Source: a virus (Duplodnaviria > Caudoviricetes). From it: a DNA stretch of 52,193 bases. Position 1 is the stretch's first letter. Every line of letters starts with the position of its first letter. The stretch is taken from IMG/VR virus record IMGVR_UViG_3300027863_000004, positions 1-52,193 of that record. One strand, 5' to 3'. The notes beneath the pieces were generated by a model that was not told where the DNA came from, searched no databases, and saw nothing but the letters and a program-made list of their open reading frames with translations. The position numbers were made by a program, and so were the translations under genes. Of this stretch, positions 21,101 to 49,682 are shown piece after piece.

Positions 21101-23252
21101 TGCAGCACATGCAGCGGCTTACTTCTCAGCAGAGCTACCTGCAGTTGCAGTTCAAGACATGTTCATCAAGAAGCTTTTGAAGGGCGCGAGCAATATTCGT
21201 GATGAAGGGCTTAAGAGGCAATATCTTGAATTAGCTGATGAGATTAAGAATGTGGCATTCCAACAGGCTGGCTATCGCCCATTCTATGAAGTTGGACCGA
21301 TGTGGTCTCGTTGGGTTACGCGTGTTACTGACTTCTTACACTCCTTAGCTGGCAAGATAATCGTTCCACTTAGACCGTTAATTCTTCTCAAAAACCTTGT
21401 ATTCTCGTGGTCGCCATATTTCCTCATCAATCCTTCTGAGCCAACTTGGAAGAAGATAAAATATCTCCTTCATGGCGCGTGGTTTACCATAGCAGACCCA
21501 GAGTTTAGGAAATTCGTCATCTCCAACCCAGCAATTTCCGAGATTTCGCTTGATGTTCTATATGGCTTATATGCAGGCTTTCTGAAGGCAGCGCCACAAG
21601 GGCTTTCAGAGAATGAGCGTGCAAGGTGGGCATTAGGCAAGCTTGAAGAGATAGCGCGCAATCCAAGTGCAGCGCTTGAGACGCTGTTTAAAGTTATACC
21701 AACAGCAGGAGAATACTTGTTCAAGATAGCAGACGCGGTTCCTCGCATAGTTATTTTTGCAGCTGAATACATGAAGGGGCTTAATGAAGGTTTGCCACAT
21801 GAAGTTGCCTTATCAAGAGCCAATACTACCTCGTTGATGGCACAAGCGCCATTAGTTTCAGGTGGCATTCCATACGCGTTATCACAATACCCGCCAGGCA
21901 TTAGGGAGTTATTGCGTGCTATTACATTCTTCCAGAGCTATGGTTTGAACAAGGCATTTTTGACACTAAACACATTCAAAGCAATTTCCAAAGCGCCTCC
22001 AAGGGAGAAGCTATGGATGACGCTTAACCTTGGGCTTGCATATACTATTGATTTCCTTGTGGCATTTGGGATTGCAACGCTACTATCGCGAAATTCAGAA
22101 GATGTAAAGAAGCTGCTTGTGCGTTCTCTTTTGTTGGATGTCATTCCACCAGTTATAGGAGATGCTTTGTATCGTGTCTATCGTGTTGGTGAGCGTTGGG
22201 AGCCGACAAAGACACTGAGAGTAGTTACGCGAGACCTTGAAACTGGTGCAGTTAAGAAGAAGTGGGATGAAATTGTAGCCGAGTATTTACAGACGGGCAT
22301 GGAAGCGCTACAAGCATTTGCAGGATGGTTTCCTCGTTCAACTGAATGGGGGCGTGGCACAATAGGTGCTCCACTATCAATGCCAGCGTTGGACATTTTA
22401 GGTGACTTAATCACTAACGTCCATGATGCTATTGGGTTTATGGCACACACATCACAGACATGGGAACAATTAAAGAAGCGTTATCCAGATGTTGGTGATT
22501 TAGTAACAGCTATGAAGCTTGTGTATCAAGACCCACTTGCAACAGCAATTGGTGGTGATAGGGTAGTTCAAGACTGGCATGCGCTTTCAATACTCCTTCA
22601 CATCCTTAGCAGGGCTGCGGGCACTGTTGCACCAGTGCCAGAATTTCCAGTTGTGCCAGAGACAGTCGCAAATGCACTTCGTGGCTATCTTGACATGCGT
22701 GTTGTCAATGAGCTTACACCGCGATATAACAAGGAATTTCTTGATGACATAAGCAAGTTCTCAAAGGCATACTTAGGTATCAAAGAGCTATTCCATGTTT
22801 TCAGGGGTTCACCTATGTTTGGCAAGCAATTAGTTTACTCTCACATCATTCACCAAAAAGGCTTCCAAGATGATGTCAAGCATCTTACATTGCTCAAGCT
22901 TATTCCAGACCCAGACCAGAAAGAAGTTTCACCGCAATTTGCTCTATCTACAATTTATGAGCTATTTGACCTTGCGTTGACACAGCCAGAAGTGAGAAGG
23001 TTTATCATCAAGTATAAAAACAGCGTTCTTGGTGAGAGGTTAAGGAAGTATGCGAGGTTAGCTGAACAAATAAGGAGCAAGCATGGTAAACCAATTTACA
23101 CGGAGCAGATGTTTGATGAAGCGATGAGAGCCATTGAAATATTAGCTTCTGAAGATGAAAAGAAAAGGAAAGAGGCGCAGCTAAAAGAACAAGCTCAAGG
23201 AATATTTCCTCTTCCAGCTACGCTAAAGGGAACGGGTGGTGAGAAGCAATGA
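9168..23252 (+). CDS. Giant (4694 aa) putative internal virion/ejection protein
   Basis: Uninterrupted 14-kb ORF at the end of the ejection-gene block. It is Glu/Lys/Ala-rich with only about four Cys, has hydrophobic Gly/Ala segments near the N-terminus, and its C-terminal region (ADAVPR...AITFFQSY) resembles the C-termini of large phage ejection/polyvalent proteins. Confidence 0.7.
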   Translation: MPSLDDIKELRKHSLFSITSPNQAKRYVAALNYLRWLYRDYNGDVYRVAQEISGQSKLWDSTGVAIGLYQWLNAPLATDPKTKKPTRLLYEDLVACREFLDQLANSPEQRQKSLKNTIVQVGGVPYSGMRVAQYMAAIARAIDYYLTMTDDPSLKELKQKWNAYLSSNKYGKQILTPGLWEDKKIGDLLVTANTLFSYFAPIVNHSISVTKRIAPILERSHQGVSKDNKNALTGLVTIGIVSALGGLHGSMFSSVPLNVQTWETFKKEAQQTHKAIVSQLKTPQEVIKSFWSNVFKQVSHRDYTVIGGLKELGQEVYRYNYQEMFEPNEKILPPELKHRVSDTEKELFGFTRSFTASFAGWAARGFRYARGLIKIGPETYAWIDIPISEVPFVENRKKRTWERVGEWSGATTAILRDIAITWGASALARGAVAGVGMLSKLVGASGIAGKMFTESEKIAKFGEAASKALTALRSTKIGEHLIHLAPFSSVVGAEHAIEVFKDESNARKAVLEGIKSAGLTEMQVLLMQAAGAPAARFVARHLERIPKLAPREVMVGLGTAAATRLKIQNPFVTMLRTGIEFGVGAPAVGIAFDTYRTIREGEYKQLPSVIWEHVKEAPSEFLRGLTVHFPHFFGEAEAYREAGRPPTLPTTPPTPPAPPAPQPPTPQPPAPQPQAQQPPTAPPGAPQPQTLRERMEAIRQRAQELRQADDMMRQAEELLRQGKAVEAEQLRKQAEQIRAKYPPSPVEEPRVRKVEITFGEWRTAPRGPASKMLSEELAKEPDPLSIAARARVRMSKFVDATVNVDATPLEVAQKDRSFEKERGVLRKQREQAISLLSTFYRRLGMSEDMARLLAQEVVDINIANSLAESGLDLKKGLDVPDYLQQEAKGLAGGDAEAQKQFISKLREGFSKASQRLDTVTGLLTPMMTGVADKDIALHFSHPELLRFSMQHPLWQAAGDIVTASRPAIEDLTVTLNEPGTWNKRPRVEISANISARNRAAVDEAINEVVRKYRMQPEQANALRVMAHALYEASPFGDIDVLRRAGLYAADEAWSILGTVNNDAELRSVAFSHPDLVVPLLMRDEAQLTATIKARVVRYLESLKPHEDFKVPEEDINALAASVAKALLNPPVPYLRMRPQDARSKIEKWISEELIPEQLAIDVIKVMGKVTPEEVKKGLADKAIISLLDTFDMAAGLEKPEYALAAGYYRALLSSRLMSKERARQHMLNLLRGGVEKALTKFAQEPPSELSEFFGTLTKLDDALVKLVTEKSLDANDTVVEALEALQKNIGDADAWGVIVGDELASLIAKHKSSPVLRYRAERVVNAARSVVGRKLVENIFGFIEAPFEEYKGAAQKLTEELATGEVSDETRSSYDQAVSKLNELTTTLVTLIKGEKIHGDLARLLNMYNRVAGKVTYNEAMLYLSRHLENLQLLGAMEQQLAKETLSHFANVAVDEALSSLKVEETAKKEKKAKEKKIPSILQLEQILPQQLYRVLPSLEERLYLVHEEIKRRLLEDENLSRLTLKGMSPDTIDDYLMGRLLYTLGIQPNERTLGNYWRSLPESARGAMLDGYIDAQTGRAREFMRIVRELAVIPERAIMPAVIVTPPPTPAAGAFLPPEQPIRALPLPGQPRGVTFVPTAPATTPPYGIRELPPVSEVEGKPTEMPSIKEPSPEERIEVSRLEPITEPPKRERGEIEVEDFVISVKGTPKKVYVSIEPWGLLRPRFDVWGLRKERDQAVGEKDVVPVVAFPSSEVVLNSVFATAYSDEKWSDLDRARRQETKTVLLETYKKWSEVTSGEISDMMEFWYQVFKATNINLAEEGRYVPLGDQASQLVRQWIEEAEAGKNTKGAKIVNQFGLERVKRWVEYETRAFIFPPVLRAEITEKEGFAFTYDLPESLGYFPIIRRPSEEAERSAETAPGMQVAQTVKGSEPVPPKAEPPTSKEEEREQRRRRIAESLLSALEEESQPGGWLGGRERLRLSREIKVLEERLSKARSILNRLRVKGEDWKIPILEKIEQRLQEKIERRKARLARAEELREARKELYEAFSRLVKTVGKEKVASDADAVLRNPYYSMPFALAHEFIKSTGLPLTRDAEQLATAINEAKISGAMTHTVDACISALFRMRTSHRVFVLLSLVDPEEFERVASTKHVSSLPKALTAEREVPSEPTSIAELILSGPFNIETATPSEIAERLALELYHIALETTQSYSHLLTSSARKALTKIIYKVLLYSARYPRVTEQNTKEALKLWRTLMYGTEELPLEEKGLKDLEYKAFMGINTINSYLNNAIVITLPTILRTRPRPRAERATKEPREEEVKVDLSKYRFVAPEGAIVEEEAPVEEGKVVEEIAAALREPLPEEVEEGEVVGEGREIEEEIEEEVEKEGEAKAPPKTAAALLTYDKVVERARRRIVSEKFEKQLIKLYKMRKLGKLVSIFTIREGTPVPVKERVRPMSFGEALEAFDETMATVVARHLVGKASPSSNVYRWATTRYEGALKVIPFVGAEHPEEFKNLGFVVSGLAAFREAVEHPMVLSEKKRWASTTTSLEELREKAEEAMEEGEEVEELPIRDLITMIYMPDVEGMAADIIPRSMITAIDKRTERVIETTDKLLTAPFSDIAKAALIFGLHEPYEVKIEEVGETAKLPSLIGAIWRGRNMSEAYALSAIEVMEEYAGKPIGNAFAKVSEILQSWNAIMQAGGEQAHFWGKIALIRRDISSLEDVLTELRKAAEKAPHELPEGVTFEEFASVVDQALRHLHNQRMAIEASLSSFPIVNKVAMTFSELSRKLREDEKLKEMANTCREVADLEDEKAILEKEKEITEFALTIIGAFKDSLRFFDKGKEFAIQYLSYIAYQNLPHLSLGEVYTPLHNAWVYKTVVREGELTDVEEEAKRRAIKAAKIKLGAEVFAAIADHLQKHTASYEAILRMCVGAVSRRAEEYTAPLSVTEVEVDYGKGRLSVLGIDVSNSLIALRQSLERYFRDTGKAPTEATYQYLGKVIENMLHTTVVQLTAQTATEITKEGANPRNIIIRYLDELKERVKDFSYESYRKNRPLYFYLQTLDGILDIIKEHVKEGKVSDDVLKALFGVYNLHVQLKSLPIPREEKERILGELATRVEELSSLAVRDEALQALMTDFNNLLAIQETLSVMGRRIGEALQKGEVVNLLKSLEEKKAEVKEAEAKEAEAKKAAEEVEEAAKPKKKYTYAATLTFNLRGLPEVRVDLSRLYDVSGHEPIRALSGEVFRAIGENKALYVSRDALTDYAKTLKTVADFAFKSAQVEGDEEAIDKARYFGEYVDALVRTLEKLPMDNIILRVERPGEITERVEKAREYMETAERVGAKTEAREIYEQLSRRIYIPTELYEVAQEAVRKVIGKEEFEKEIQEKEKALQRKKEELEEILEDLESRAKRSKSKELMERLEQARAEYERVNAALERIPKLREVLTELASKELPELSQLPLLLRHLHERPPEPMPEEEPTTGVVNLGVLPFLPITTDALQSMINHTALAQWHDLLTSGVQGIITGVIATYYAPRALHEFLKLFPSYNNYVRNIHNLIERPPAPRSKIEEVMARLMHGERIDESELRFTLDYLLKDIEEGKIKFEIPTGLYKMSNPLTRTQLVFQEIGKQIAQNIGADPEVVTTFLYQALIGNGIAARRKARTDLAPRLFGYFAAAEHALMGGKNPEALRGIERVKNIVERWWTRATNPVLKIKWQLWHENLRNVFDAIHQEIVGTKLSDELLADYNEKLTRAIVEEFDRLDASGSKNPAEDVLNLDIVDVLAKIHNVSRRSVEDALMRLGYYQGVIRLREIMNVLSFDYNAKRLNGQTEKVTVNITPDELQRFKTASVYYLVGSYKIFDLYNDAVTRFSSYEDIRPKITHLSFWAPHFWDTSFSGLIKLWSLERLASITRSPDAKILRYAIEGRRAVARQIKQIESEPTTVEAALRLLATRHAPYFEVERRVLEGYLGWEDPFTSALRAAHAAAYFSAELPAVAVQDMFIKKLLKGASNIRDEGLKRQYLELADEIKNVAFQQAGYRPFYEVGPMWSRWVTRVTDFLHSLAGKIIVPLRPLILLKNLVFSWSPYFLINPSEPTWKKIKYLLHGAWFTIADPEFRKFVISNPAISEISLDVLYGLYAGFLKAAPQGLSENERARWALGKLEEIARNPSAALETLFKVIPTAGEYLFKIADAVPRIVIFAAEYMKGLNEGLPHEVALSRANTTSLMAQAPLVSGGIPYALSQYPPGIRELLRAITFFQSYGLNKAFLTLNTFKAISKAPPREKLWMTLNLGLAYTIDFLVAFGIATLLSRNSEDVKKLLVRSLLLDVIPPVIGDALYRVYRVGERWEPTKTLRVVTRDLETGAVKKKWDEIVAEYLQTGMEALQAFAGWFPRSTEWGRGTIGAPLSMPALDILGDLITNVHDAIGFMAHTSQTWEQLKKRYPDVGDLVTAMKLVYQDPLATAIGGDRVVQDWHALSILLHILSRAAGTVAPVPEFPVVPETVANALRGYLDMRVVNELTPRYNKEFLDDISKFSKAYLGIKELFHVFRGSPMFGKQLVYSHIIHQKGFQDDVKHLTLLKLIPDPDQKEVSPQFALSTIYELFDLALTQPEVRRFIIKYKNSVLGERLRKYARLAEQIRSKHGKPIYTEQMFDEAMRAIEILASEDEKKRKEAQLKEQAQGIFPLPATLKGTGGEKQ

Positions 23253-24706
23253 AGTTTTGTCTCATCACAAAAAGCGGTCCAGGCTTACCATTGCTTTTGC
23301 GTTTAAGAGATGAAGGGCATCAAGTTGCAGCTGTCATAATGTCAAAGTCGTGCAAGCATTTGTATGATGGTTTAGTGCCAAAGTTTGACAAAGTGCCCGA
23401 TGACTTTGATGTGTATTTTAGTGATGAAACTGGTTTATCCAAGGTGATGGAAGACCTTCGCAAGTCTGGCAAGAAGGTTTTCAATGGCACAGCGCTTGGT
23501 GATAGAGCGGAAGAAGATAGGCATTTTGGGTTGGCGATGGCATTGGCATCGGGCATCCGTGTGCCATACACACGCGTGTTCAAGGATGTGAACGAGGCAG
23601 TAGATTACATCATCAAGCACAACAGGAAGGTTGTCATCAAGCTTTCGGGCAGAGTTGCATGTGCATCATCGTATGTGGCACAAAACCCAGAAGCTGCAGC
23701 GCGTTGGCTTATGAGGCAACAGGAGGCGGGTTACCTGGTTGATGCCAAGTCATTCATTGTTCAAGACTTTGTTCCAGGGCACGAGATAAGCACGGAAGTG
23801 TGGTATTCCAATGGCAAGCCAATACCTGGCTCAGTTAACTACACAGTTGAGACGAAGAAGTTTGCGCCTGGTGATTTGGGACCGAACACGGGTTGTCAAA
23901 CTTCAATTGTGTTTGCTGCAGGAGCAGATGATTTACTTGTTCAAGAGACACACAAGAAGGTTGCACCGATGTTTGCAGCTGCAAATGAAAGTGGTGCATG
24001 GGATGCGAACACGATAGTGAGCCATAGGAGTGGCAATCCATTCTTCCTTGAGTGGTGTGGTAGCAGGTTTGGCTACAATGCAATCTTTTGTTTGCTCATG
24101 TTGATGGGGCGCACACAGGAGTTTGGTGAGGTGCTTTACAAAGCTGCGGCTGGAGAAGAAGTTGTGATGAACTTAAGGAAGGGGTATGGGTTTGCAATTA
24201 GAGTATCCATACCACCGTATCCGCTTGAAGGCAGTGACACAGTTTCACAAGAAGTTGAGAAGCTCTACGAAGTGTTTGCCAAAGATGTGTATGTTGAATT
24301 TCCAGACACACCAGAGGATGTAGAAATCTTTCCAATGGATGTTTACATCAAAAATGGTGAGCTTCGTTGTGCAGGCACAGATGCAATCATTTGTGAAGTT
24401 GCATCATTTGGTGAGACGATAGCTGAAGCAAGAGATAAAGCGCTTGAAGTTGCACAGAAGATAAAGTGTGACAGTGACATCTACTACAGAGCAGAAGATG
24501 CAACAGAGCGTGCAGAGAAAGTCATACCAAACCTTGCATCGCGTGGTATAATTACAGCACCAGGATATAGCGAGCAACCAGAGCCTGAAGAGGCTACAAA
24601 GAAAGACTTGAAAGGGGTTAGACAAATGCGAACACCGCGTGGCATAATAAAAGTGGACAAGTTAACATTTGGAGATGAAGGAGATGAGGGTGATGAAGGT
24701 GATTGA
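23249..24706 (+). CDS. PurD (GAR synthetase)-like ATP-grasp ligase
   Basis: EEDRHFG...GIRVP, VVIK, IVQDFVPGHEIS, ETKK...GDLGPNTG and LEWCGSRFG match PurD-type ATP-grasp motifs. The N-terminus diverges from the PurD GxGGRE loop. Confidence 0.85.
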   Translation: MKFCLITKSGPGLPLLLRLRDEGHQVAAVIMSKSCKHLYDGLVPKFDKVPDDFDVYFSDETGLSKVMEDLRKSGKKVFNGTALGDRAEEDRHFGLAMALASGIRVPYTRVFKDVNEAVDYIIKHNRKVVIKLSGRVACASSYVAQNPEAAARWLMRQQEAGYLVDAKSFIVQDFVPGHEISTEVWYSNGKPIPGSVNYTVETKKFAPGDLGPNTGCQTSIVFAAGADDLLVQETHKKVAPMFAAANESGAWDANTIVSHRSGNPFFLEWCGSRFGYNAIFCLLMLMGRTQEFGEVLYKAAAGEEVVMNLRKGYGFAIRVSIPPYPLEGSDTVSQEVEKLYEVFAKDVYVEFPDTPEDVEIFPMDVYIKNGELRCAGTDAIICEVASFGETIAEARDKALEVAQKIKCDSDIYYRAEDATERAEKVIPNLASRGIITAPGYSEQPEPEEATKKDLKGVRQMRTPRGIIKVDKLTFGDEGDEGDEGD

Positions 24707-25184
24707 AAAGCCATCACCAAATCAAAGTGAAAGATTACTTGGTAGTGTTACGAATGTGATAGTTCTTCACACCACAGAAGGCGATGCAAAAGGAGCATTA
24801 TCATGGCTGACAAACCCCGAGAGCAAAGTTAGCGCTCACTTTCTGGTTACACGCGATGGAACAATCTACAAACTTGTTCCCACCACAAGAAAGGCGTGGC
24901 ATGCAGGTAAGAGCAGGCTTGGTGTATGCAATCAAGTGAACAACATTTCAATTGGCATTGAGATTGAGAGTTATGAAGGAGCGCGTGATTATCCAGATAA
25001 GCAACTTGAGGCGCTTGCGTGGCTCATATGGCAAATCATGAAGAACAATCCAACACCGATTTCCACAATCACTACACACAAAGACATTAGCATTGCAGGC
25101 AAACAAGACCCTGTTGACTTTCCCTACTTGCGGTTCTGGAAAATATTCGCTAAAGTTGTGTGTAGAGAGGAGGGCATTAAGTGA
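24693..25184 (+). CDS. N-acetylmuramoyl-L-alanine amidase (Amidase_2) endolysin
   Basis: IVLHTTEG, VSAHF, AWHAG, SIGIEIE and H...K.DP zinc-amidase motifs. Confidence 0.92.
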   Translation: MKVIEKPSPNQSERLLGSVTNVIVLHTTEGDAKGALSWLTNPESKVSAHFLVTRDGTIYKLVPTTRKAWHAGKSRLGVCNQVNNISIGIEIESYEGARDYPDKQLEALAWLIWQIMKNNPTPISTITTHKDISIAGKQDPVDFPYLRFWKIFAKVVCREEGIK

Positions 25185-37877: not shown

Positions 37878-38084
37878 ATGGGCGTTATAGTAGTAGTGAC
37901 GGGAACTGTAGCGGGTATATCCACCGCCATGGCGATTGGAGGGTTGCTTACCTTCAACGCCTGTAGGGCGGTGGGGAAAGACGGCACTCTCCTATCGAAC
38001 ATAGCAGCGTTGATGACAGTGATAGGCGTAGTGGGTATGCTGTTATCAACGCTGGCTTTGAATATATTAATACTCCTTAGATGA
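37878..38084 (+). CDS. Small two-TM membrane protein
   Basis: Two hydrophobic stretches; SD GGAGGTG. Confidence 0.65.
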   Translation: MGVIVVVTGTVAGISTAMAIGGLLTFNACRAVGKDGTLLSNIAALMTVIGVVGMLLSTLALNILILLR

Positions 38085-39365: not shown

Positions 39366-39407
39366 AAATGACAGGGTAACCAAATTGGTTACCCTGTCAT
39401 TTTTTTT
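39366..39407. terminator. 37-bp near-perfect palindrome with T-tract
   Basis: aaatgacagggtaaccaa-a-ttggttaccctgtcattt. Confidence 0.7.
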
Positions 39408-39689: not shown

Positions 39690-40202
39690 TTAGTTCACAC
39701 TTTGTGGCAAGTTGGGGTATGGAAACTTCATTTGGTTTGCTCTAATTGTGTCAAGTTCTATGTTATGGAGTTCTTCTTGTGATGGTTTTTTGAGCACGAT
39801 ATAGCGTATGACTTTTCCATACACTTGGAAGGCTGAGACCCAACCGTAGTATCGGCTATCGTAAGAGAATGGGTGTTCGCCGAGCACCCAGATTTTGTCA
39901 CCTTGTTTAGCGACCACTCTTTTGACGATGTGCAAGATTTTGTCGCCGTCGGTAATTCTCACATCAACCAAGTCACCGATTTTGATGTCTTCAATGTCTT
40001 TATAACTTTCAAAGTGATATCGTTTCAAAAGTGCGATACTGAATGCACCCAATGTTTTATACATTGAAAGTCCGCGCGCTAAAACTGGTGTGTAATGGTA
40101 ATCCATGATTAGAGTAAAGGAGCATGACAAAGCAAGGCAAATACAAAACAAGACAATTTTGCGTTTTATTCTCACATACTCGTTTCTACTCATTTCCTTC
40201 AA
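39690..40202 (-). CDS. S26 (signal peptidase I-like) Ser-Lys peptidase
   Basis: N-terminal TM, GLSMYKTL (catalytic Ser), IVKRVVA (catalytic Lys), and SYDSRYYG. Confidence 0.85.
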   Translation of the reverse strand: MKEMSRNEYVRIKRKIVLFCICLALSCSFTLIMDYHYTPVLARGLSMYKTLGAFSIALLKRYHFESYKDIEDIKIGDLVDVRITDGDKILHIVKRVVAKQGDKIWVLGEHPFSYDSRYYGWVSAFQVYGKVIRYIVLKKPSQEELHNIELDTIRANQMKFPYPNLPQSVN

Positions 40203-40467
40203 CCTTCTTACTTAAAAATTGCCTAACGATATCTTCAACTGCCTGTCTACCCGCGAATGCGGCGCTGAATGCGATAATTGGGGATTGGTCAACGATGATG
40301 CCAAGTATGATACCGAGCACCAAGTCACTTAGGAAGCCGAGTGCGATTTTATGTCCTTTTCTTTTTGGCAGTTCAATGAAGCCAGAGATGCAAGCTCTTG
40401 CAATTGCGCCAGCAGCACCAGCGAGTGCGAAGATGAGTGTCTTGCTTGCAAGCACTGTATGTAACAT
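40186..40467 (-). CDS. Small multi-TM membrane protein, holin candidate
   Basis: Three hydrophobic segments and a basic C-terminus. Confidence 0.5.
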   Translation of the reverse strand: MLHTVLASKTLIFALAGAAGAIARACISGFIELPKRKGHKIALGFLSDLVLGIILGIIVDQSPIIAFSAAFAGRQAVEDIVRQFLSKKVEGNE

Positions 40468-40481
40468 ACCACATCACCGTT

Positions 40482-40766
40482 TTAGTAGATGATGAGCCAG
40501 TCCAAGGCTCGGCACATTGCAAGAGCCACCAACAGGTTGAGTTGGCGCTCCTTTAGTGTTATTCCTTTCCTGTGCAGTAGTAGTGAGATATTGTATTTTG
40601 CAAGTGCGCATTCATGTTCAAAGCACCGTGTCTTATACAATGCCCACAAGGCTGCTGTAATGACTTTTCGTGCAAAGAGTTTACTTTCCTTCCAGCTCAT
40701 CCCACTATTCATGTGCACCAACAGTGTGATGAGCGTCTCATTTACCAATTCTTTCCAAAACTTCAT
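40482..40766 (-). CDS. Paralogue of the adjacent LL-H-holin-like protein
   Basis: KGITLKERQLNLLVALA resembles KGKQLTKRQINLAVELAV. Confidence 0.5.
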   Translation of the reverse strand: MKFWKELVNETLITLLVHMNSGMSWKESKLFARKVITAALWALYKTRCFEHECALAKYNISLLLHRKGITLKERQLNLLVALAMCRALDWLIIY

Positions 40767-41031
40767 GGAAGATATTCACCGCCAACTCAACAGCAAGGTT
40801 GATTTGGCGCTTCGTAAGTTGTTTGCCCTTTTCTTTGAGCAATGCCTCAAGCGCCTTCTTCGCTTCTTCAAACTTTTGTGCATTTGTATACGGCTTCTTG
40901 TCAAGTTGCTCCACAATCGCAAGTAACACATCTTTTAGGTCACCGACTAAGTATTCAAGTGACCTTTCCATGTAGCGTCTGAGGAAGTATTTTTCAATTG
41001 ACTTGAACACTTTCTTAAGCGTCATTTTCAT
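40738..41031 (-). CDS. LL-H-family holin-like protein
   Basis: KFEEAKKALEALLKEKGKQLTKRQINLAVELAV resembles the LL-H holin C-terminal motif; the TM segment is weak. Confidence 0.5.
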   Translation of the reverse strand: MKMTLKKVFKSIEKYFLRRYMERSLEYLVGDLKDVLLAIVEQLDKKPYTNAQKFEEAKKALEALLKEKGKQLTKRQINLAVELAVNIFHEVLERIGK

Positions 41032-41299
41032 CGCCTCCTGATGGCAATGGTATGATTATCTCATCTGGTGTCACAATCATGAACTCATGTTCACCAATGA
41101 AGCCAAGCTTTTTAGCAGAATGCATCGTCAATTTGGCAGCATATACGAATATCGTGCCATAAAATTGCACTCTAACCCAATCAACGATTTCGTCAACGAT
41201 GTATGCCATAAACAAGTCCCATGTGAATTTAATCTCGCTCCATATTCTCTTCAACAGTGACATCAATGACACCTTCCTTTTTCTTCTCTCGTGCGCCAC
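41015..41299 (-). CDS. Hypothetical protein with hydrophobic segment
   Basis: ORF in the leftward operon. Confidence 0.5.
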   Translation of the reverse strand: MAHERRKRKVSLMSLLKRIWSEIKFTWDLFMAYIVDEIVDWVRVQFYGTIFVYAAKLTMHSAKKLGFIGEHEFMIVTPDEIIIPLPSGGDENDA

Positions 41300-41759
41300 C
41301 TGATTGTAGTATTTTGAACCGAAGCACCGTTTGTTGCAAATCTGTTGTGCCTTGATAGCATGGATGGCGTGCTTGCAAGAACTTTATCGCTGCAGTAGTG
41401 TCGTCTTGCAATGCACGCTCAATGAGCTTGCGCTCTATCCTGAGCGCCCAAAAGTCAAAATAGTTCCTGATGGCTTGCGCAACCTCAGGGTAGATTTGCA
41501 CAAGCTCATCTATGTCCGATTTAGATATACCATACTCTTGCATGATGTCATCAAGGAAGAAGCCCTTCCTTAACCCTCCTATGATGACATCACGCGCTTC
41601 TTCTTTTGTTAAAGCGCATTTTGTATTGGCGAGTGCCAGCCCAACTTCAATCTTGCTTACACACGAACACGCTTCTTTGGAAGGAGCTTGTTCGGACCCT
41701 TCCCGCCCTTTGAGGCTACCTTCTTCTCTTTCGGTGAGCACTTCTTCTTCGGCATGCAT
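41229..41759 (-). CDS. terS: Terminase small subunit-like HTH protein
   Basis: HTH (IMQEYGISKSDI..YPEVAQAI) followed by IERKLIERAL..DTTAAIKFL, a common TerS pattern; SD GGAGGG on the minus strand. Confidence 0.6.
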   Translation of the reverse strand: MHAEEEVLTEREEGSLKGREGSEQAPSKEACSCVSKIEVGLALANTKCALTKEEARDVIIGGLRKGFFLDDIMQEYGISKSDIDELVQIYPEVAQAIRNYFDFWALRIERKLIERALQDDTTAAIKFLQARHPCYQGTTDLQQTVLRFKILQSGGAREKKKEGVIDVTVEENMERD

Positions 41760-41804
41760 GCTCTCCCTCCTTTGCGTTACACTTAGATTAAGGGTGATGA
41801 AACA

Positions 41805-42596
41805 ATGCTTATGCTCACTGACATTGACAGCCTAAAGCGCTTCCTCATGAATGCAAGTATAGCGCAACTACAGCAACTTGTAAAGCAGTCAAAGACACAA
41901 ACATGGATTGTCCATGCGCTACTTGTTGATGCAATTGATAACCGCGACGATATAGACGAGGAACAGAAGAAGAAGTTGCTTCATGAGGTTGGCTCACGCT
42001 ACAAGCTCTATCAACTGCGCGTCGTCTACAAAGTCTTTGGTGCAATACCAGAGAGCTACAGTGCACCAATGACATCGCTCTTTTGTTTGCACATGTTATG
42101 TCCTGATGAGCCACCTGAGAAGCTTATTCCATACGCTTACATGAAGACTTCGGCGCACTGGACAAAACTCTATAGGCAATATCGGTGTGCTGCTAAGCAA
42201 AAGCTCACTATCAGTGACATTGAAGCAACATTAGATGGGTTTGTGAAGACGACAAGGAGCGTAGCAATTTCAAGGCAACACCTTGCCGACCTTATTATCA
42301 CTTCATTTAACACGCCACTTTCGTTCGCCTCATTTATTGCCTATGTTGTGTTCAAAATGCGTGACAAATTGCGTGAATGTGGGTATAGCACATTAACAGC
42401 GTCGCAACTTTGGGTGCTCATTACAAGGCGCATCTTGATTGAGAAGGTGAACTTGGTTGGTGTGAAGATTGAAATTGACGATAGCATTTGGGATGACATT
42501 GAGGCGATAATAGAAGCGACCGCTGAAAGGAAATTGAACACATTCAATGGAAAGCCACTGGAGGTGTATGCACAAGATGATGCAGAAGGAGATTGA
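41805..42596 (+). CDS. Hypothetical protein, first gene of the late operon
   Basis: 263-aa ORF overlapping terL. Confidence 0.6.
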   Translation: MLMLTDIDSLKRFLMNASIAQLQQLVKQSKTQTWIVHALLVDAIDNRDDIDEEQKKKLLHEVGSRYKLYQLRVVYKVFGAIPESYSAPMTSLFCLHMLCPDEPPEKLIPYAYMKTSAHWTKLYRQYRCAAKQKLTISDIEATLDGFVKTTRSVAISRQHLADLIITSFNTPLSFASFIAYVVFKMRDKLRECGYSTLTASQLWVLITRRILIEKVNLVGVKIEIDDSIWDDIEAIIEATAERKLNTFNGKPLEVYAQDDAEGD

Positions 42597-43956
42597 GCTA
42601 ACACCGAAGCAGGCAATGTTTGTGCAGGCACGCCAGCCTGTGTGCATTTACATTGGTGGATGGCGTGCTGGAAAGACTTTTGCAGGGTGCTGTAAGGTGC
42701 TCCATTACATCTTACAAAATCCAGGTGCATGTGTCTTAGTGGGCAGGAAGACATACAGGGAGCTATATGATACAACGCGTGCAACATTTATGCAAATCCT
42801 ACCACCTGACTGGCTCAAGATGTATAAGCACTCAGAAGATAAAGCGGTGATACAGCCAAGTCGTGATGACCCACCTTCAATTGTCCTTTTCAGGGCGCTG
42901 GATGAGTTTCAAAAGTTTGGCTCACTTGAGCTTGCAGCATGCTATATTGATGAAGCCACTGAGTTCAAAGACGATAGCATTTTCAACTTCCTCATGGGTA
43001 GGTTGAGCCAGCGTGGCTACCCACCACAAATATGGCTCACCGCTAACCCTGCATCACCAACACATTGGCTCTATGAACGCTTTGTGAGCAGAGCTGGCGG
43101 CAGGGATGTGTATGAGGATGAGGAGCTATTCTTTTGTCGCTCACGCACTGTTGAAAACCCATTCATAGACCCTGCCTATATTGAGCTACAGTTGAAACAG
43201 ATGCCAGCTAAGTGGCGTCAAAGATACTTAGAAGGTGATTGGGTTGAGCTTGAAGGCTATGAGCCAATCTTTCCCGAATACAACGAGGAGCATCGTGCAC
43301 ACAATTTAAGGGTGAGCCTCGCAGTGCCACTTTACCGAGGTTGGGACATTGGGCATGCACATCCTGCATGTGTGATTGCACAATGGCTTCCTGTGGCACA
43401 AAAGTTCAATGTGCTGTGGGCTGAGGTGCAGTCACACATGTGGATGGGCGACTTCCTTAAGTATGTTGAAACTGTGACACATGTCCTTATGAGTGAGGCA
43501 TTAGCTAATGCAGACCCAACTTCAGTAGTATGGGGCGCACGCTTTTCAATCATTGATGTTGCAGGGCATGATGCAAAAGCTCATTATCCAACTTCGGACA
43601 AAAGCGTCATTGAAATCTTTCGTGAGCATGGTATAACACTTCATACAGTGTATTCTAACATGCTTGATAGAGTGCGAGCAATGCACGAACTTCTAAGCAA
43701 ACGCTCAAGAGAAGGTGGGGCAATGTTGCAAGTTGATGTTGAGCGCGCTAAAATAATTGACGATGGCTTTCGTGGTGGGTATTCTTGGAAGCCCACCGAT
43801 ACTGGAGAATTGAAAGTTGACACAAGGCATATTAGCGTTCATGCTATGGACGCGTTGGGTTTTATCATTCTTAAGGCGATGCCTTGGACATTGCGTGGCA
43901 CACAATCATCAGTGCCATTGATTGATGTGCCATCGCCAACATATGGGGTGATTTAA
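42577..43956 (+). CDS. terL: Terminase large subunit
   Basis: LTPKQ, GGWRAGKT Walker A, YIDEA Walker B, LTANP, ENPFI, GWDIG nuclease Asp, and HAMDALG. Confidence 0.95.
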   Translation: MMQKEIELTPKQAMFVQARQPVCIYIGGWRAGKTFAGCCKVLHYILQNPGACVLVGRKTYRELYDTTRATFMQILPPDWLKMYKHSEDKAVIQPSRDDPPSIVLFRALDEFQKFGSLELAACYIDEATEFKDDSIFNFLMGRLSQRGYPPQIWLTANPASPTHWLYERFVSRAGGRDVYEDEELFFCRSRTVENPFIDPAYIELQLKQMPAKWRQRYLEGDWVELEGYEPIFPEYNEEHRAHNLRVSLAVPLYRGWDIGHAHPACVIAQWLPVAQKFNVLWAEVQSHMWMGDFLKYVETVTHVLMSEALANADPTSVVWGARFSIIDVAGHDAKAHYPTSDKSVIEIFREHGITLHTVYSNMLDRVRAMHELLSKRSREGGAMLQVDVERAKIIDDGFRGGYSWKPTDTGELKVDTRHISVHAMDALGFIILKAMPWTLRGTQSSVPLIDVPSPTYGVI

Positions 43957-43958
43957 AA

Positions 43959-45803
43959 GTGCCACAAGAATGGCTTGACAAGAGTATGCCCGAGGTTGAA
44001 TTTGACGAAGGGCGCATATTGCCTGAAAGCTTCTATGTGAAGTTTGTTCAAGACTTACAGAGATGCTCCAAGAACTACCGTATGAACTGGGAGAATAGAG
44101 CAAAAGAGGCGTGGCGTGTTTACAGGCAGGAGTATGACTTTAGTGCAAAGCGCCCTTGGCAGGCAAAGACATACATTCCTAAGCTCACAAAGGCTGTTGA
44201 AGTTGCAGCAGCCATTTTGAAAGTCCTCACGGTGCAATCGCGAGCCTTCTTTAGCGTAGACCCAATAAGGAACACTCCAGTAGACCTTGACATTGCAAAA
44301 TCTATTGAGCGTGTGTTGTGGCATGTGCTTGAAGAAAATAGGTTTGTTGAGAGCTTCTATGAGGCGCTCATTGTTGGCTTAGTCACAGGCATGCTCGCCT
44401 ATAAGGTGTATTGGCATACAGAGCAGAATATTGAATGGCAGTTGTCGGCGCTTGGGTTGATGCCGAGTGTGAAAAATGTTGCAGGTGTAAGAATTGACTT
44501 AGTAGACCCGCTTGACCTTTACCTTGACTGGACTGGCAAAGATACATTTGCCATCCACGAGTTCTATCTTGAAGTTTCAACGGTGAAGGCGCTCGCAGAG
44601 ACTGGCTATTTTGACCCAGACAAAGTGAAGGAGCTAAAAGGTTCAGGGCTTGAAGATTGGGCAAAGACAAAGGGCACATTCATTCCAACATCGCCATATA
44701 AGAAGCATGTGAAGATTTGGGAATTTTGGGGCACGGTGACGGATGAAGATGGCAATATCATCCATCCAAACGCATATATGGTGATTGCAGACGAGGACAA
44801 GCTTCTAAGAGGACCGATACCAAACCCCTATGCGCCATTCAAACATCCATTCATTATTGCAGCTCCATTTTATAGACCATTCCTTGTCTACCACAAAGGG
44901 TTGGTGCATGATGCGATAGAGCTACAGCGTGCCTTGAATGAGTTCATGAACTTTATGATTGATGCATCACGCTACCATGCACTGCCAATCTTTGTTGTGC
45001 AACTTGATATGCTTGCAAGACCTGAAGATATCTTAGAAGGCATCATGCCAGGTAAGACTGTGCTTCTAAGTGGTGCAATACCACCGAATGCATCTCCAGT
45101 CACTGCAATCAATGTTGGTGGCATCACACAAGAGATTGTGAACATCTATGCAATCCTTGAGCGTGAGATACAGAATGCGACTGGAATTACAGAGCTTTTG
45201 ATGGGCACACAAAGTGCGCGCGGGCGTCCCACTGCAACTGAGATTGTGACTGGTAGAGAGCAAGCTACAGCGCTTGTTGAAGTTATTGGACGAAACATTG
45301 AAGACCAATTACTTGAGCCACTACTTCAACGCATTTGGGTTATCCTCACACGCTTTAGAGACCAAGTCACAGATGAAGAGTTGAAAGAACTGCTTGACAA
45401 GATTGAAGAGTATGCACAAGAGCTTGAAGACCCAAGTGAGGTATGGACGCGCCCTTACAAGTTTAGAGCGCGTGGTATAACGACGATAATGCAACGCGCC
45501 GCACAGATTAACAAGCTTGCGAGTTTCTTACAACTCATACAGGCGTTCCCAGATGCAACACTTGCCATTAAGTGGTATAATCTACTTGTGGAAATGATTA
45601 AGTCGCTTCAGTGGCAACCTGATGAAGTGCTCATACCTGAAGAAGAATTTGAAGCAAAGAGACAGCAAATGATGATGATGCAACAGATGATGGCAATGTT
45701 GCAACAGGCAAGCAAGGGTAAAAAGAGAGGCAGTAAAAGGGCACAAGAGCGCCCTGGCACAATGACAGAAGCCATCGGTGGCGAAATGCCACGCACCGAG
45801 TAA
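43959..45803 (+). CDS. Portal protein (podovirus type)
   Basis: 614 aa directly after terL; DPLDLYLD, KIWEFWG, LQRALNE and TATEI motifs. Confidence 0.88.
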   Translation: MPQEWLDKSMPEVEFDEGRILPESFYVKFVQDLQRCSKNYRMNWENRAKEAWRVYRQEYDFSAKRPWQAKTYIPKLTKAVEVAAAILKVLTVQSRAFFSVDPIRNTPVDLDIAKSIERVLWHVLEENRFVESFYEALIVGLVTGMLAYKVYWHTEQNIEWQLSALGLMPSVKNVAGVRIDLVDPLDLYLDWTGKDTFAIHEFYLEVSTVKALAETGYFDPDKVKELKGSGLEDWAKTKGTFIPTSPYKKHVKIWEFWGTVTDEDGNIIHPNAYMVIADEDKLLRGPIPNPYAPFKHPFIIAAPFYRPFLVYHKGLVHDAIELQRALNEFMNFMIDASRYHALPIFVVQLDMLARPEDILEGIMPGKTVLLSGAIPPNASPVTAINVGGITQEIVNIYAILEREIQNATGITELLMGTQSARGRPTATEIVTGREQATALVEVIGRNIEDQLLEPLLQRIWVILTRFRDQVTDEELKELLDKIEEYAQELEDPSEVWTRPYKFRARGITTIMQRAAQINKLASFLQLIQAFPDATLAIKWYNLLVEMIKSLQWQPDEVLIPEEEFEAKRQQMMMMQQMMAMLQQASKGKKRGSKRAQERPGTMTEAIGGEMPRTE

Positions 45804-45828
45804 TAATGTATTCAGGAGGTGATATTGC

Positions 45829-46050
45829 ATGCCTAAGCAGGAAGTCATTGAAGAGAACCCATTGGAAGGTGTAAAGCGCATTGGCTACAATGTCACTGTG
45901 AATGTGCTCCCACCAATTGATGATGTGGAAGAGAAGAGGGCGCGCGTTAAAGAGAACACCGCATTCAATGAGCCACTGCGCCCTGCATCACCATGGCTAA
46001 AGAGGCATCGTGCACGCATAAAAGCCAAACGCGCAAAGGAAGGTGATTAG
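45829..46050 (+). CDS. Small protein with basic C-terminus
   Basis: SD GGAGGTG. Confidence 0.65.
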   Translation: MPKQEVIEENPLEGVKRIGYNVTVNVLPPIDDVEEKRARVKENTAFNEPLRPASPWLKRHRARIKAKRAKEGD

Positions 46051-46051
46051 G

Positions 46052-46306
46052 ATGCCTCGCAAGACGAAAAGGCGCAAAGGTAGTGCAAAAAGAAAAGCTA
46101 CACTGGCGTCAAAGGAAATCCAAAAGCTCCTTCGTGAATACAAAAGAACTGGTAAAATGACAACTTCGCGTGCGACATATCGCCCTCGCAATTTGGAGCA
46201 CGCGCGCAAAATCGCGGCTGCCATTGCATATGGCAAACATGGTTTAGGTAAAGCAGGTGCAAGGAAGCGTGCAAAGAAGGCGTCTAAAAAGCGTAAGAAG
46301 AGGTGA
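46052..46306 (+). CDS. Lys/Arg-rich small protein (resembles DUF6496-type phage basic proteins)
   Basis: REYKRTGK...KIAAAIAY core with basic tails. Confidence 0.7.
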   Translation: MPRKTKRRKGSAKRKATLASKEIQKLLREYKRTGKMTTSRATYRPRNLEHARKIAAAIAYGKHGLGKAGARKRAKKASKKRKKR

Positions 46307-46312
46307 ACTATA

Positions 46313-46621
46313 ATGCCACGACGAAGACAAGCACAAGTGCCACCAACGCCACCAATGCCACCTATGGGCATACCTGGTGGTTTGCCGTTAGACATACTTG
46401 GTGGCATCATGCCTACGGGCATGTTTCCACCAGCAATGCCTGAAGAAGCAGGAGAGCCAGCGCGCAGGCGTAGCAGGGCTACGAAGCGCGCAAGGACAAC
46501 AAAAAGAAATGCAGCAACAAGGACAAGGCGTAGGCGAGCTACAAAAGAAAGGAAGAGAAGAAGGGCTACTACAAGAAGAACCCAAAGAAGAACAACAAGG
46601 AGAAGGACAAGAAGGCGGTGA
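46313..46621 (+). CDS. Protamine-like protein with Pro/Met/Gly-rich N-terminal half
   Basis: The last 52 aa contain 26 Arg and 4 Lys interspersed with Thr/Ala; SD GAGGTG. Confidence 0.7.
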   Translation: MPRRRQAQVPPTPPMPPMGIPGGLPLDILGGIMPTGMFPPAMPEEAGEPARRRSRATKRARTTKRNAATRTRRRRATKERKRRRATTRRTQRRTTRRRTRRR

Positions 46622-46627
46622 TAAATC

Positions 46628-46861
46628 GTGCCAGCGCTCACATCTAAATTGCTTGCTCGTGGCTTAGCAGTGCCAAAGTTGGCGCGTGCACGCAAGCCAA
46701 GAAAGCCAAGGAAGCCACGCCTAAAAAAGATACGCATGCCAAAGCTAAAGTCATCAATTAGAGGTGTGCGCTTATCCACCAAAAAGAGAGGGCGCACCAA
46801 GCTACCTAAACTAAAGGGGCTTAGACGGGCAACGCGTATAACCGCGCGTATAACATCCTAA
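46628..46861 (+). CDS. Lys/Arg/Pro-rich histone-H1-tail-like protein
   Basis: RKPRKPRKPR repeats and no acidic residues in 77 aa. Confidence 0.65.
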   Translation: MPALTSKLLARGLAVPKLARARKPRKPRKPRLKKIRMPKLKSSIRGVRLSTKKRGRTKLPKLKGLRRATRITARITS

Positions 46862-46876
46862 TAGGGGGTGATTGTA

Positions 46877-47644
46877 ATGCGTTACAAAGTCGCGTTATCT
46901 TTCGTTGTAGGGATGGTGATTGGTATGGTTGTAGCATATGCAAACACGCTTGATGAGCTTGTAAAGTGCACATGGTCACTTGAGAGCACATCAGCGCGTG
47001 GCACTGGCACATTGTTTAAGTCACCTAAGGATGGCAAGTGGTATTTCCTGACTGCAGGGCATTGTGTTGAAGACTTGCGTTCCGAGCAAAAGGAAGTCGG
47101 TCCTGAAGGCAAGGAGATTATAAAGGAGAAGTGGGAAGACGCATACATTGTTCAAAAAGTGACCGCGCTTGTTGATGACATTGAAACTGAAGTTGGCACA
47201 ATAAGGCTTCGTGCTAAAGTTGTTGCCTATAGCAAGTTTGAAGACGAAGACCTTGCGTTGCTTGAAGTGTATGCTATGCCATTTGAAGCAGTTAGTGCGC
47301 AGTTTGCACCACCAGATTTGCAACTCCAGCTTGGAGAGCAAGTCTGGCATGTGGGCAACTTGCGTGGTGAATTGACCGCGTCATTAACTGCAGGTCATAT
47401 CAGTGCAGTTGGGCGCATTTACAAGTCAAAGCCATTCATTCAAACAACAACTGTTGCAGTGCCTGGGTCGTCTGGTGGTGGAATTTATGTTCAGCGCGAT
47501 GGTAAATTCTACTATGTGGGCATGATAACGCTTGGTGATGCACAGGCAAGTAACATCAACTTTGCAATTCCGTTCCAGCGCATAAGGAAATGGTTGCACA
47601 AAGTCGGGTATGCACATGTGATAGGTGATAAGGATGAGCAATAA
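46877..47644 (+). CDS. Trypsin-like (S1) serine protease with predicted Sec signal peptide
   Basis: TAGHC, DLALL and PGSSGGG catalytic triad motifs; N-terminus MRYKVALSFVVGMVIGMVVAYA|N. Confidence 0.9.
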   Translation: MRYKVALSFVVGMVIGMVVAYANTLDELVKCTWSLESTSARGTGTLFKSPKDGKWYFLTAGHCVEDLRSEQKEVGPEGKEIIKEKWEDAYIVQKVTALVDDIETEVGTIRLRAKVVAYSKFEDEDLALLEVYAMPFEAVSAQFAPPDLQLQLGEQVWHVGNLRGELTASLTAGHISAVGRIYKSKPFIQTTTVAVPGSSGGGIYVQRDGKFYYVGMITLGDAQASNINFAIPFQRIRKWLHKVGYAHVIGDKDEQ

Positions 47645-47858: not shown

Positions 47859-48638
47859 ATGGCTTGGTATGACGAAGAAGAGCGTGAAGAAGAACAACAA
47901 GAACAACAAAATGAGGTGACTGAGAAGTTGGAACAGATACAGCAACAGTTGAATGAATGGCAAAGACAGCTATTGCAAAGTGTGCAACAACAGCCACAGC
48001 AACAGCCACAGGTGCAACAACCATATTATCAATTTCAATCAACGCCACCTGTGGCACAACAGCCACAACAAGGCATTGATGAAAGTGTGTATGAGCAGTT
48101 GAGTGAGCTCCTTCATGAAAATCCGAAGGAGTTTGTGAAGGCATACACACAAGTGGTTCAAAATCAACTACAACAGACTTTGGGTATGGTATATAGAACA
48201 GTGGCAGAGTTAAATGCATGGCGACAGCAGTTGCAGTTGCAACAGCTTGCACAACAGTTTTATGCTACCTATCCAGACCTTGTTGGCTTTGAGACGATTG
48301 TGCAAGCTGCTGCACAAAAAGTGTATCCACAGAAGACATGGACGAATGCACAAGAATACTTCCAAGCCGTCGCCGAAGAGGCACGGCGCATGATTAAGGA
48401 GATTGCAGAAAAAGCAGGTGGTAGGGTTGAGGCTCGTAGTAGGCTTCAACCTGCAGGCTTGCCTGCTCAATCTGGAATAACATCATCAGCTGTGACACAG
48501 CCATCAACGCCTTCACCAGAATTTGTGGAGGCGATGATGGAGAACCTTAACAAACAGTTTGTAGACGAACTTGAAAAAATAGTCAGGCAAAAGAGGAGTT
48601 CACCTCCGCCTCCAGTGACGCCATCGCGTCGGCGCTGA
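47859..48638 (+). CDS. Putative capsid scaffolding protein
   Basis: Acidic/Gln-rich helical protein immediately before the MCP. Confidence 0.7.
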   Translation: MAWYDEEEREEEQQEQQNEVTEKLEQIQQQLNEWQRQLLQSVQQQPQQQPQVQQPYYQFQSTPPVAQQPQQGIDESVYEQLSELLHENPKEFVKAYTQVVQNQLQQTLGMVYRTVAELNAWRQQLQLQQLAQQFYATYPDLVGFETIVQAAAQKVYPQKTWTNAQEYFQAVAEEARRMIKEIAEKAGGRVEARSRLQPAGLPAQSGITSSAVTQPSTPSPEFVEAMMENLNKQFVDELEKIVRQKRSSPPPPVTPSRRR

Positions 48639-48722: not shown

Positions 48723-49682
48723 ATGCCAGCGCAAGTTTACGGTGTGCCAAGACTTGGTGGAGTGCTCGCCTTGCCATCGCTAACTGCTGAAGTTCGCAAG
48801 GCAGCACTACCACGATTTGTCTTTCGTCAATTTGTCCGCCCAGTTCAGGGCTATGGCAAAAACAAGGGCGATGAAATTCGTTTCCCACGCCGTAGCGGTC
48901 TGGCTGGGTCAGGGCGCAGGCTGGCTGAGACCGAGCTCATCCCAGTCACAGGGTTCACGATTGATTACGGAACCTTGCTTGTGGATGAGTATGGCAATGC
49001 AGCAGCCTGCACACTCAGGTTGACAACCTTAGCCGAGATTGACATCCAGCCACATATCGTTGATGCTTTGCGCGACGACATTGTGGCTACGATGGACAAG
49101 GAGATTGCTGCAGTTGCCAAGAAGACGAAGATAAAGTATGTTCCTACATCCTCAACAGGTGGCGTGTTCCTTACCAATGGTGAATTCAAGGACAGCCAAG
49201 GCAACCCCGTCGTAGCTACAAGTAACTTGACAACGGCACATGTCAAGGACATTGTTGATTACCTGCAAGGTTACTTGCATGTGCCAGGCTATGACGGTGA
49301 GAACTATGTCTGTATCCTGACGACCAAAGCACGCCGAGGCATCATTGATGACAGCAACTTTGTGCAAGCTGCCCACTACGGCGACCCAGAGCGTCTATTC
49401 AGGTATGAGATTGGCTTGCTTTACAACACAAGGTTTGTGCACTGCAACAACCCAGACGCTCTGAACAATGCCGTTGGGCAGAATGGCGTGCTTGGTGAGG
49501 CTCTGTTCCTTGCCGACGACCCACTTGTTGAAGGCGTTGCTCTGCCTGAGGAAATCAGGTCAGAGACGCGCGACTTGGGTCGTCAGACAGTCATTGGCTG
49601 GATTTACATGGGTGGTTGGGCGCTCACTTGGGATAGCAACAAGCCTGGTGAGTGCCGTGTAATCCATGTTGGCTCTGCATAA
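48723..49682 (+). CDS. Major capsid protein (HK97 fold, N4-gp56-like)
   Basis: GKNKGDEIRFPR, EYGN, YEIGLLYNTRFV and DLGRQTVIGW motifs; follows the scaffold gene. Confidence 0.85.
   Translation: MPAQVYGVPRLGGVLALPSLTAEVRKAALPRFVFRQFVRPVQGYGKNKGDEIRFPRRSGLAGSGRRLAETELIPVTGFTIDYGTLLVDEYGNAAACTLRLTTLAEIDIQPHIVDALRDDIVATMDKEIAAVAKKTKIKYVPTSSTGGVFLTNGEFKDSQGNPVVATSNLTTAHVKDIVDYLQGYLHVPGYDGENYVCILTTKARRGIIDDSNFVQAAHYGDPERLFRYEIGLLYNTRFVHCNNPDALNNAVGQNGVLGEALFLADDPLVEGVALPEEIRSETRDLGRQTVIGWIYMGGWALTWDSNKPGECRVIHVGSA

Follow-up and report, generated by a model that had tools for sequence, protein, structure and literature searches.

A minimal type I signal peptidase and a predicted exported trypsin-like protease, probably separate accessory genes in a podophage-like genome

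Bacterial type I signal peptidases (MEROPS S26A), among them Staphylococcus aureus SpsB, and their short Gram-positive forms combine Ser/Lys motifs, an S-x-D-S-R-x-x-G box, and an N-terminal anchor in a shared fold. Small extra S26-fold proteins are encoded beside envelope-protein genes, including SipW (TasA, TapA; Bacillus subtilis), SipA (Streptococcus pyogenes pili), and TraF (conjugative systems). SipW is a Ser/His enzyme; in SipA the catalytic residues have been lost. DegS, DegQ, and DegP carry a protease domain with a catalytic triad and an N-terminal signal peptide or anchor. Prohead maturation proteases (HK97-type, ClpP-like, and T4 gp21-type), on the other hand, are encoded between the portal and the scaffold/capsid genes, an order that is classic for T4-type head modules. 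The DNA analyzed here over its full length (the window) is a complete 52,193-bp viral genome that has direct terminal repeats (IMG/VR record IMGVR_UViG_3300027863_000004; Caudoviricetes). It encodes a very short signal peptidase (S26) and, in the place typical of a prohead protease, a trypsin-like serine protease (S1) with a fold like that of the DegS, DegQ, and DegP protease domains.

Type I signal peptidases are seldom encoded by phages. Phage-borne copies of both enzymes are already annotated in databases, and literature searches found no functional study of a phage-encoded signal peptidase (gp032 of Bacillus phage BCD7 included) or of the S1 family. PMC10367356 deals with host signal-peptidase substrates, not with a phage enzyme. 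The explanation that we favor, and regard as probable when all of its parts are taken together, is that S26 and S1 are two independent accessory genes for envelope-acting enzymes in an otherwise ordinary, podophage-like genome.

S26 matches PF10502 over residues 22-106 (E 5.2e-11; 43.2 bits against a cut-off of 22.9) and scores 40.9 bits with NCBIfam TIGR02227, below the equivalog cut-off of 47. The nucleophile Ser46 lies in the motif G-L-S-M-Y-K-T-L, in a column conserved in at least 90% of a 20-sequence alignment (A2, S26 and 19 relatives). The general base Lys94 is invariant both there and in a six-sequence alignment (A3). The conserved box is present as S-Y-D-S-R-Y-Y-G, but G-E-H stands where the consensus has G-D-N, as it does in five of the six A3 sequences; the other, P0069, has G-E-T. 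A hydropathy scan predicts one N-terminal transmembrane (TM) helix, residues 14-36, behind a Lys/Arg-rich N-terminus, and the catalytic domain would lie outside the cytoplasm. The AlphaFold model (pLDDT 94) finds its best PDB fold matches in SipA, SpsB, and the LexA C-domain, with SipA first, while the NCBIfam models of TraF and SodX match weakly. A PDB sequence search returned a marginal match only (4nv4, E 0.13), and the structural placement came from the fold search. The first-pass annotation had described an S26 peptidase with an intact Ser/Lys dyad, and at the level of sequence the gene product is confirmed as a membrane-anchored minimal signal peptidase.

Relative to its bacterial counterparts, the window's S26 is phage-encoded, very short (167-170 amino acids, aa), without the large second beta-domain, and equipped with a conserved C-terminal helical tail in addition to the G-E-H variant. 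It differs from SipW and SipA in its Ser/Lys chemistry, and, unlike dedicated signal peptidases, its clade is accompanied by no conserved substrate gene. Translation probably begins at ATG 40193, which a GAAGGA Shine-Dalgarno sequence precedes. Because this codon overlaps the last codons and the stop of the preceding gene, which encodes a 93-aa membrane protein, S26 appears to be translationally coupled to it.

The clade that contains S26 is rare: among 1.84 billion representatives searched exhaustively, 33 matched at E<=1e-3 and three at E<=1e-10, and a word-indexed search recovered three close proteins. One relative, P0101 (47% identical), is encoded on an 80.8-kb contig. There was no tblastn match in GenBank phages at E<=0.01 and no match to a PHROG family. 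A motif scan for minimal S26 genes located 21 viral loci in 2.9 million IMG/VR contigs, most of them on contigs of 60-90 kb that resemble phage BCD7. BCD7 gp032, annotated as "putative signal peptidase I", and its relatives on these contigs are likewise minimal tailed-phage S26 proteins, and the BCD7 capsid protein is distantly related to that of the window (24% identical). The similarity between gp032 and the window's S26 is only remote, however, and gp032 sits in an early/nucleotide region by a "sporulation protein", whereas the window's S26 shares an operon with a holin-like protein. When S1, S26, or the portal protein was used singly as query, the only close relative recovered was a near-identical one (G001). 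In this near-identical relative, S26 is 85.9% identical, compared with 90-96% for the remainder of its operon and 96-99% for core structural genes; this gradient fits an accessory, host-facing gene. A more distant copy, 46% identical, occurs on a metagenome phage contig with homologous terminase and portal genes (L089), where it is solitary and points away from the packaging operon, without the 93-aa gene or the genes resembling the LL-H holin that precede S26 in the window. Directly 3′ of this S26 copy, positions 10470-12400 of L089, about 2 kb, are CA/TG-rich repeats of low complexity, a sequence that reads as long His/Thr/Ala/Cys-rich pseudo-open reading frames on both strands.

S1 matches PF13365 (Trypsin_2) with E 2e-15. 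Its catalytic residues H65 and D128 and the G-S-S-G-G-G stretch at residues 200-205 are invariant across 24 homologues. The N-terminal hydrophobic segment is followed by A-Y-A, translation likely starts at ATG 46877, and no later start codon bypasses the signal segment. The intact triad and the hydrophobic N-terminus bear out the earlier description of a trypsin-like protease in the divergent late operon, with a signal peptide ending in A-Y-A. Among the 53 phage open reading frames (ORFs) scanned, S1 alone has a cleavable-looking signal peptide; these export calls, like the others made here, rest on Kyte-Doolittle hydropathy windows. The gene begins 6 nt past the preceding stop codon and runs 20 nt into the next gene, and neither a promoter nor a terminator of its own flanks it.

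The S1 model (pLDDT 88.9) is closest in Foldseek to the protease domains of DegS, DegQ, and DegP (E about 1e-11); its best-matching viral models are annotated as periplasmic or trypsin-like proteases of uncultured phages. S1 shares with the bacterial enzymes the protease-domain fold, the triad, and the N-terminal signal peptide or anchor, but it is phage-borne and only about 20% identical to them. Moreover, no PDZ domain was matched, and the C-terminus extends only 13 residues beyond the protease domain. With the NCBIfam models for DegP and DegS, whose cut-offs exceed 400 bits, S1 reaches 33-40. Owing to the missing PDZ domain and these low scores, S1 is not filed as a member of the HtrA family, although the model suggests that it works like an HtrA protease domain.

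The S1 family is almost entirely virus-borne. In IMG/VR, a profile built from the 24 homologues matched at least 598 stretches, at least 545 of them confirmed. A scan of 185,579 prokaryotic species (one genome each) with one of two patterns returned 15 loci, all of them in metagenome-assembled genomes of scattered phyla. The only relative of S1 among GenBank phages is in Microcystis phage Mae-JY35 (24.7% identity), while a second family member used as query reached only two Staphylococcus phage records (27%). Proteins 50% identical to S1 (P0002, P0105) occur on contigs of up to 53.8 kb. A signal-like N-terminus (a 12-residue window with hydropathy >=2.0) is present in 78 of 80 viral-locus homologues; of the other two, one is borderline (1.9) and one is cut by a contig end. 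Export is therefore predicted to be a trait of the whole family.

The gene neighborhoods of 78 distant S1 loci are dominated by replication. Replication or nucleotide-metabolism genes (ribonucleotide reductase, DnaB, UvsX, primase, polymerase, ThyA) occur within three genes of S1 at 44 loci and head-related genes at 5, whereas 29 loci have no annotated neighbors. A ClpP-like head-maturation protease is also encoded at 4 S1 loci. Of the remaining 158 neighbor representatives, 150 were scanned with Pfam; they included RtcB, a sigma factor, DnaJ, PAP2, glycosyltransferases, dUTPase, and Cpn10, but no head protease. Across the 57 cluster representatives and these 150 further representatives, no peptidoglycan hydrolase or holin family was found within three genes of S1. 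At two loci of an unrelated lineage (L041 8896-11391 and L067 5464-7965), S1 is flanked by the major capsid gene on one side and a Gp80-like head fiber gene (PF23140) on the other.

In the mechanism that these data suggest, S1 would be made together with the head proteins, by co-transcription in the tightly packed late operon, and exported by the host Sec pathway through its N-terminal signal peptide. Whichever type I signal peptidase is present would cut it after A-Y-A, and the mature protease would act late in infection on periplasmic or envelope proteins, outside head assembly. S26 would be anchored by its one N-terminal helix, its Ser/Lys site lying on the outer side of the cytoplasmic membrane. 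Its role may be to supplement signal-peptidase capacity or to act on one particular membrane protein, for which the coupled 93-aa protein is the nearest candidate. The S1 family presumably relies on the host signal peptidase almost everywhere, the phage S26 being a rare, fast-evolving extra. The envelope target of S1, if found, could point to a new means by which phages remodel the cell surface, exit through it, or shield it.

Several observations weigh against reading S26 and S1 as independent, envelope-acting enzymes. Export and cleavage of S1 are predicted by hydropathy alone. S26 was sought in only 47 of the at least 545 S1-bearing contigs; many are fragments, and only seven of the 47 are at least 90% complete. 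S1 occupies the slot usual for a prohead protease (portal, small proteins, protease, scaffold-like protein, capsid), and a second, unrelated lineage (L041, L062, L067) has S1 inside the head module, directly after the capsid gene. As the only phage ORF with a cleavable-looking signal, S1 is also the only obvious phage-encoded substrate for S26. Finally, in an unrelated 55-kb phage (G065) an S26 likewise coexists with a signal-bearing trypsin-like protease; the gene for the latter is 25 kb from the S26 gene and three genes from the genes for a holin-like protein and a Phage_lysozyme. These last two points also count in favor of the dedicated, timed release system that the first-pass annotation had proposed, in which S26 cuts the signal anchor of S1 at a set time and frees the protease to attack an S-layer, a proteinaceous envelope, or receptors, whether to help lysis or to serve in exclusion. 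Both genes look intact, the near-identical relative keeps both, the signal-bearing S1 relative of Mae-JY35 lies five genes after an Amidase_2-LysM endolysin, and L089 has an amidase instead of S1 in the slot after its Arg-rich protein. The distribution of the two genes nevertheless argues otherwise. Pfam S26 is present in one of the 47 S1-bearing viral records, namely the near-identical relative itself, and in one of the seven that are at least 90% complete; conversely, Trypsin_2 is found in two of the 21 S26-bearing viral records, that same relative and G065. On these counts a conserved S26-S1 pair is not supported, and since S26 is so rare among S1 carriers, the host signal peptidase must suffice for the S1 family in general. 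In the window, the two genes are 6.7 kb apart on opposite strands and in different operons. The solitary S26 of L089 has no S1 within the 14 kb examined of its 34-kb contig, the 4.2 kb after the portal gene encoding small proteins, an Arg-rich 92-aa protein, Amidase_2, and two larger proteins. A-Y-A is an ordinary type I site and so gives no sign that a special enzyme is needed, and no peptidoglycan hydrolase or holin family was found within three genes of S1 at the 78 distant loci, as described above. We therefore judge a dedicated S26-S1 system distinctly unlikely; as single cases, G065 and Mae-JY35 leave a lysis-linked role for S1 possible but not established. A different substrate for S26 would be the coupled 93-aa protein, cut after Ala-Arg-Ala (residues 23-25) with loss of its Ala/Gly-rich first helix, so that proteolysis serves as a lysis clock. 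The overlap, and thus translational coupling, of the two genes is in keeping with this idea, as is the first hydrophobic segment, which ends in A-R-A followed by Cys in a stretch unchanged in the near-identical relative. G065 offers a parallel (L137 5190-7218): there, a gene whose 454-aa product carries a classical signal peptide is overlapped at its end by the gene for a 139-aa S26, and a DUF5658 membrane protein gene follows, so that this S26 looks like a neighbor of its secreted substrate within a tail-fiber region. The S26 of L089, however, has no such partner, most other viral S26 genes (on BCD7-like contigs) have no hydrophobic protein immediately upstream, and no endolysin lies near the S26 and 93-aa genes, the amidase being 15 kb away. 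With a cleavage site identified by eye only and a holin function that is itself putative, the clock is quite improbable. Also unlikely is a wider view in which the phage runs a proteolytic envelope program of its own: S26 would control the 93-aa protein or the release of S1, S1 would cut protein links or layers of the envelope beyond the reach of the amidase, and the signal-bearing family (at least 545 contigs, nearly all viral) would form an unrecognized class of phage envelope-remodeling enzymes.

The position of S1 could alternatively mean that it is a prohead maturation protease, recruited from an exported family to process the scaffold, the capsid, or the Arg-rich proteins inside the prohead. 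The gene order (portal, small basic proteins, S1, a 76-aa protein, scaffold-like protein, capsid) mirrors the classic one, Pfam and PHROG searches found no second protease in the genome, and the second lineage likewise has S1 beside the capsid gene, from which it follows that placement in a late operon recurs. The protein itself fits poorly with such a role. It has kept its signal peptide, the cleavage site is canonical, no internal start codon follows, and its chymotrypsin-like fold is that of periplasmic HtrA-type enzymes. S1 resembles no PHROG or Pfam head-maturation protease family. Its relatives bear signals throughout and lie mostly in replication modules, sometimes alongside a ClpP-like head protease. 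Related head modules also manage without it. A 48-kb contig (G048) has portal (E 1e-81), major capsid (E 3.6e-75), and adaptor proteins homologous to those of the window, but its portal and capsid genes are separated only by genes for a 152-aa protein and a Gln-rich 203-aa protein, and both S1 and S26 are absent from the entire contig. In the cultured phage PTXU04, whose capsid protein is about 30% identical, two unannotated genes and no protease separate a portal-sized gene from the capsid gene. The first-pass annotation had doubted a prohead function because the protease appeared to be exported, and we concur: a prohead role for S1, by recruitment from the exported family, is very unlikely. 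For annotation, the lesson is that a protease gene between portal and capsid should not be named a prohead protease by position alone. Two independent accessory genes for envelope-acting enzymes thus remain the reading that we prefer, and the coordinates of both, with those of the other features discussed, are collected in Table 1.

Table 1. Coordinates of the two protease genes and of other features of the window
Feature	Coordinates	Strand	Basis or remark
Minimal membrane-anchored type I signal peptidase (S26, Ser46/Lys94)	39690..40202	-	PF10502
Exported S1 serine protease (predicted), DegS/DegQ-like domain, without PDZ	46868..47644	+	PF13365
93-aa small membrane protein	40186..40467	-	2-3 hydrophobic segments (hydropathy scan)
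94-aa weak paralogue of the 97-aa protein	40482..40766	-	borderline hydrophobic C-terminus, residues 76-94
97-aa soluble protein with C-terminal domain of Holin_LLH family	40738..41031	-	
94-aa protein without assigned function	41015..41299	-	95.7% identical in near-identical relative
First leftward gene, 176 aa	41229..41759	-	possible small-terminase-like or helix-turn-helix protein
Perfect hairpin of 17 pairs, A- and T-runs flanking	39366..39402		past the S26 stop
Terminase large subunit (TerL)	42547..43956	+	PF04466 E 1.3e-15; phrog_2 E 1.4e-37
Portal protein, SU10-like	43959..45803	+	PF23899 E 1.1e-21; phrog_332 E 7.3e-52
Three Arg/Lys-rich genes, 87, 102, and 77 aa, pI about 12	46043..46861	+	
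Scaffold-like 259-aa protein, acidic (pI 4.9), Gln-rich	47859..48638	+	position before capsid gene
Major capsid protein	48723..49682	+	phrog_1357 E 4e-13
Amidase_2 peptidoglycan amidase, likely endolysin	24669..25184	+	PF01510 E 1.6e-30
68-aa protein, two TM segments, second holin candidate	37878..38084	+	hydropathy scan

Nearly all genes of the window are transcribed rightward. The single clear leftward unit is the six-gene operon that ends with S26 (41759->39690), which is divergent from the terminase/portal/head operon. A promoter-like site (minus strand, 41884-41856; 10 of 12 matches) precedes its first gene. The 176-aa product of this gene has no match in Pfam, PHROG, or NCBIfam but weakly resembles a 192-aa protein encoded directly upstream of TerL in L089 (7696-8274; 25% identity over 71 residues, E 6e-4 by BLASTP), so a small-terminase-like gene may be inverted relative to TerL in the window. 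The 94-aa protein encoded next matches nothing in Pfam, PHROG, or NCBIfam and shows no TM segment in the hydropathy scan.

Of the two LL-H-holin-like paralogues described in the first-pass annotation, only the 97-aa protein can be placed in a family. The C-terminal half of PF09682 is matched (E 5.4e-8; 33.6 bits against a cut-off of 24.9), residues 37-89 of the protein aligning with positions 48-100 of the 101-position profile, and phrog_608 ("holin") is matched with E 3e-6. Its Atlas neighbors are viral Holin_LLH clusters (scores 0.89-0.90), which serve as a lead only, and a 19-residue hydropathy scan shows no TM or other hydrophobic segment. The putative 94-aa paralogue matches no Pfam or PHROG family, and its resemblance to the 97-aa protein is a local match of 29 residues only (14/29 identical, E 3e-5). 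Lacking a clear TM helix, neither protein is a holin by definition.

The holin feature of a small protein with at least one TM domain is instead found in the 93-aa protein, the multi-TM protein that the first-pass annotation had correctly placed in this operon. Its first segment is rich in Ala and Gly, its C-terminus is charged, and it is 90% identical in the near-identical relative, residues 12-49 being unchanged. DUF4257 is matched under the cut-off (E 2.8e-4), and Atlas neighbors (score 0.91, again only a lead) are mainly viral small membrane proteins. On sequence features, it is the best holin candidate of the leftward operon.

The hairpin beyond the S26 stop is likely a bidirectional terminator. 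Between 38697 and 39402 (+), four long perfect hairpins of 12-20 pairs with T-runs are packed into 700 bp, where the long rightward unit meets the end of the leftward operon.

Rightward transcription from 41805 covers a 263-aa gene without assignment, TerL, the SU10-like portal, the small proteins, and S1; the Gln-rich scaffold-like protein, the major capsid protein, and an SU10-type adaptor follow. Across the ends of the record, the operon goes on with tail genes, a 4,694-aa ORF, the Amidase_2 gene, and replication genes. The three Arg/Lys-rich genes lie back to back with 6 nt spacing between portal and S1, and their products could be packaged DNA-condensing or internal proteins. The Arg-rich 92-aa ORF after the portal in L089 resembles them, whereas L110 has no such genes. 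L110 does have the Gln-rich 203-aa protein, in the position equivalent to that of the window's scaffold-like protein, for which Pfam and PHROG searches gave no family.

The capsid protein is about 30% identical to those of Vibrio and Escherichia coli podophages. Its cultured relatives (24-31% identical) are from phages of Vibrio, E. coli, Bacillus, Bacteroides, and Aquificae, and the terminase relatives are as scattered across hosts. No tRNA genes were found when the window was searched for them. The amidase, in which the hydropathy scan shows neither a hydrophobic segment nor a signal peptide, implies no more about the host than that it has peptidoglycan.

A second apparent peptidase was rejected. 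The 573-aa protein at 5665-7386 (+) matches Pfam Peptidase_S26 with 29.9 bits, but the match stems from two tandem copies, about 150 aa each, of a tail-fiber-like unit. Farther along the tail region, the 4,694-aa giant ORF (9168-23252, +) is without a Pfam match, and 3′ of it lie genes for an ATP-grasp protein (GARS_A-like), the Amidase_2 protein, and a metallophosphoesterase.

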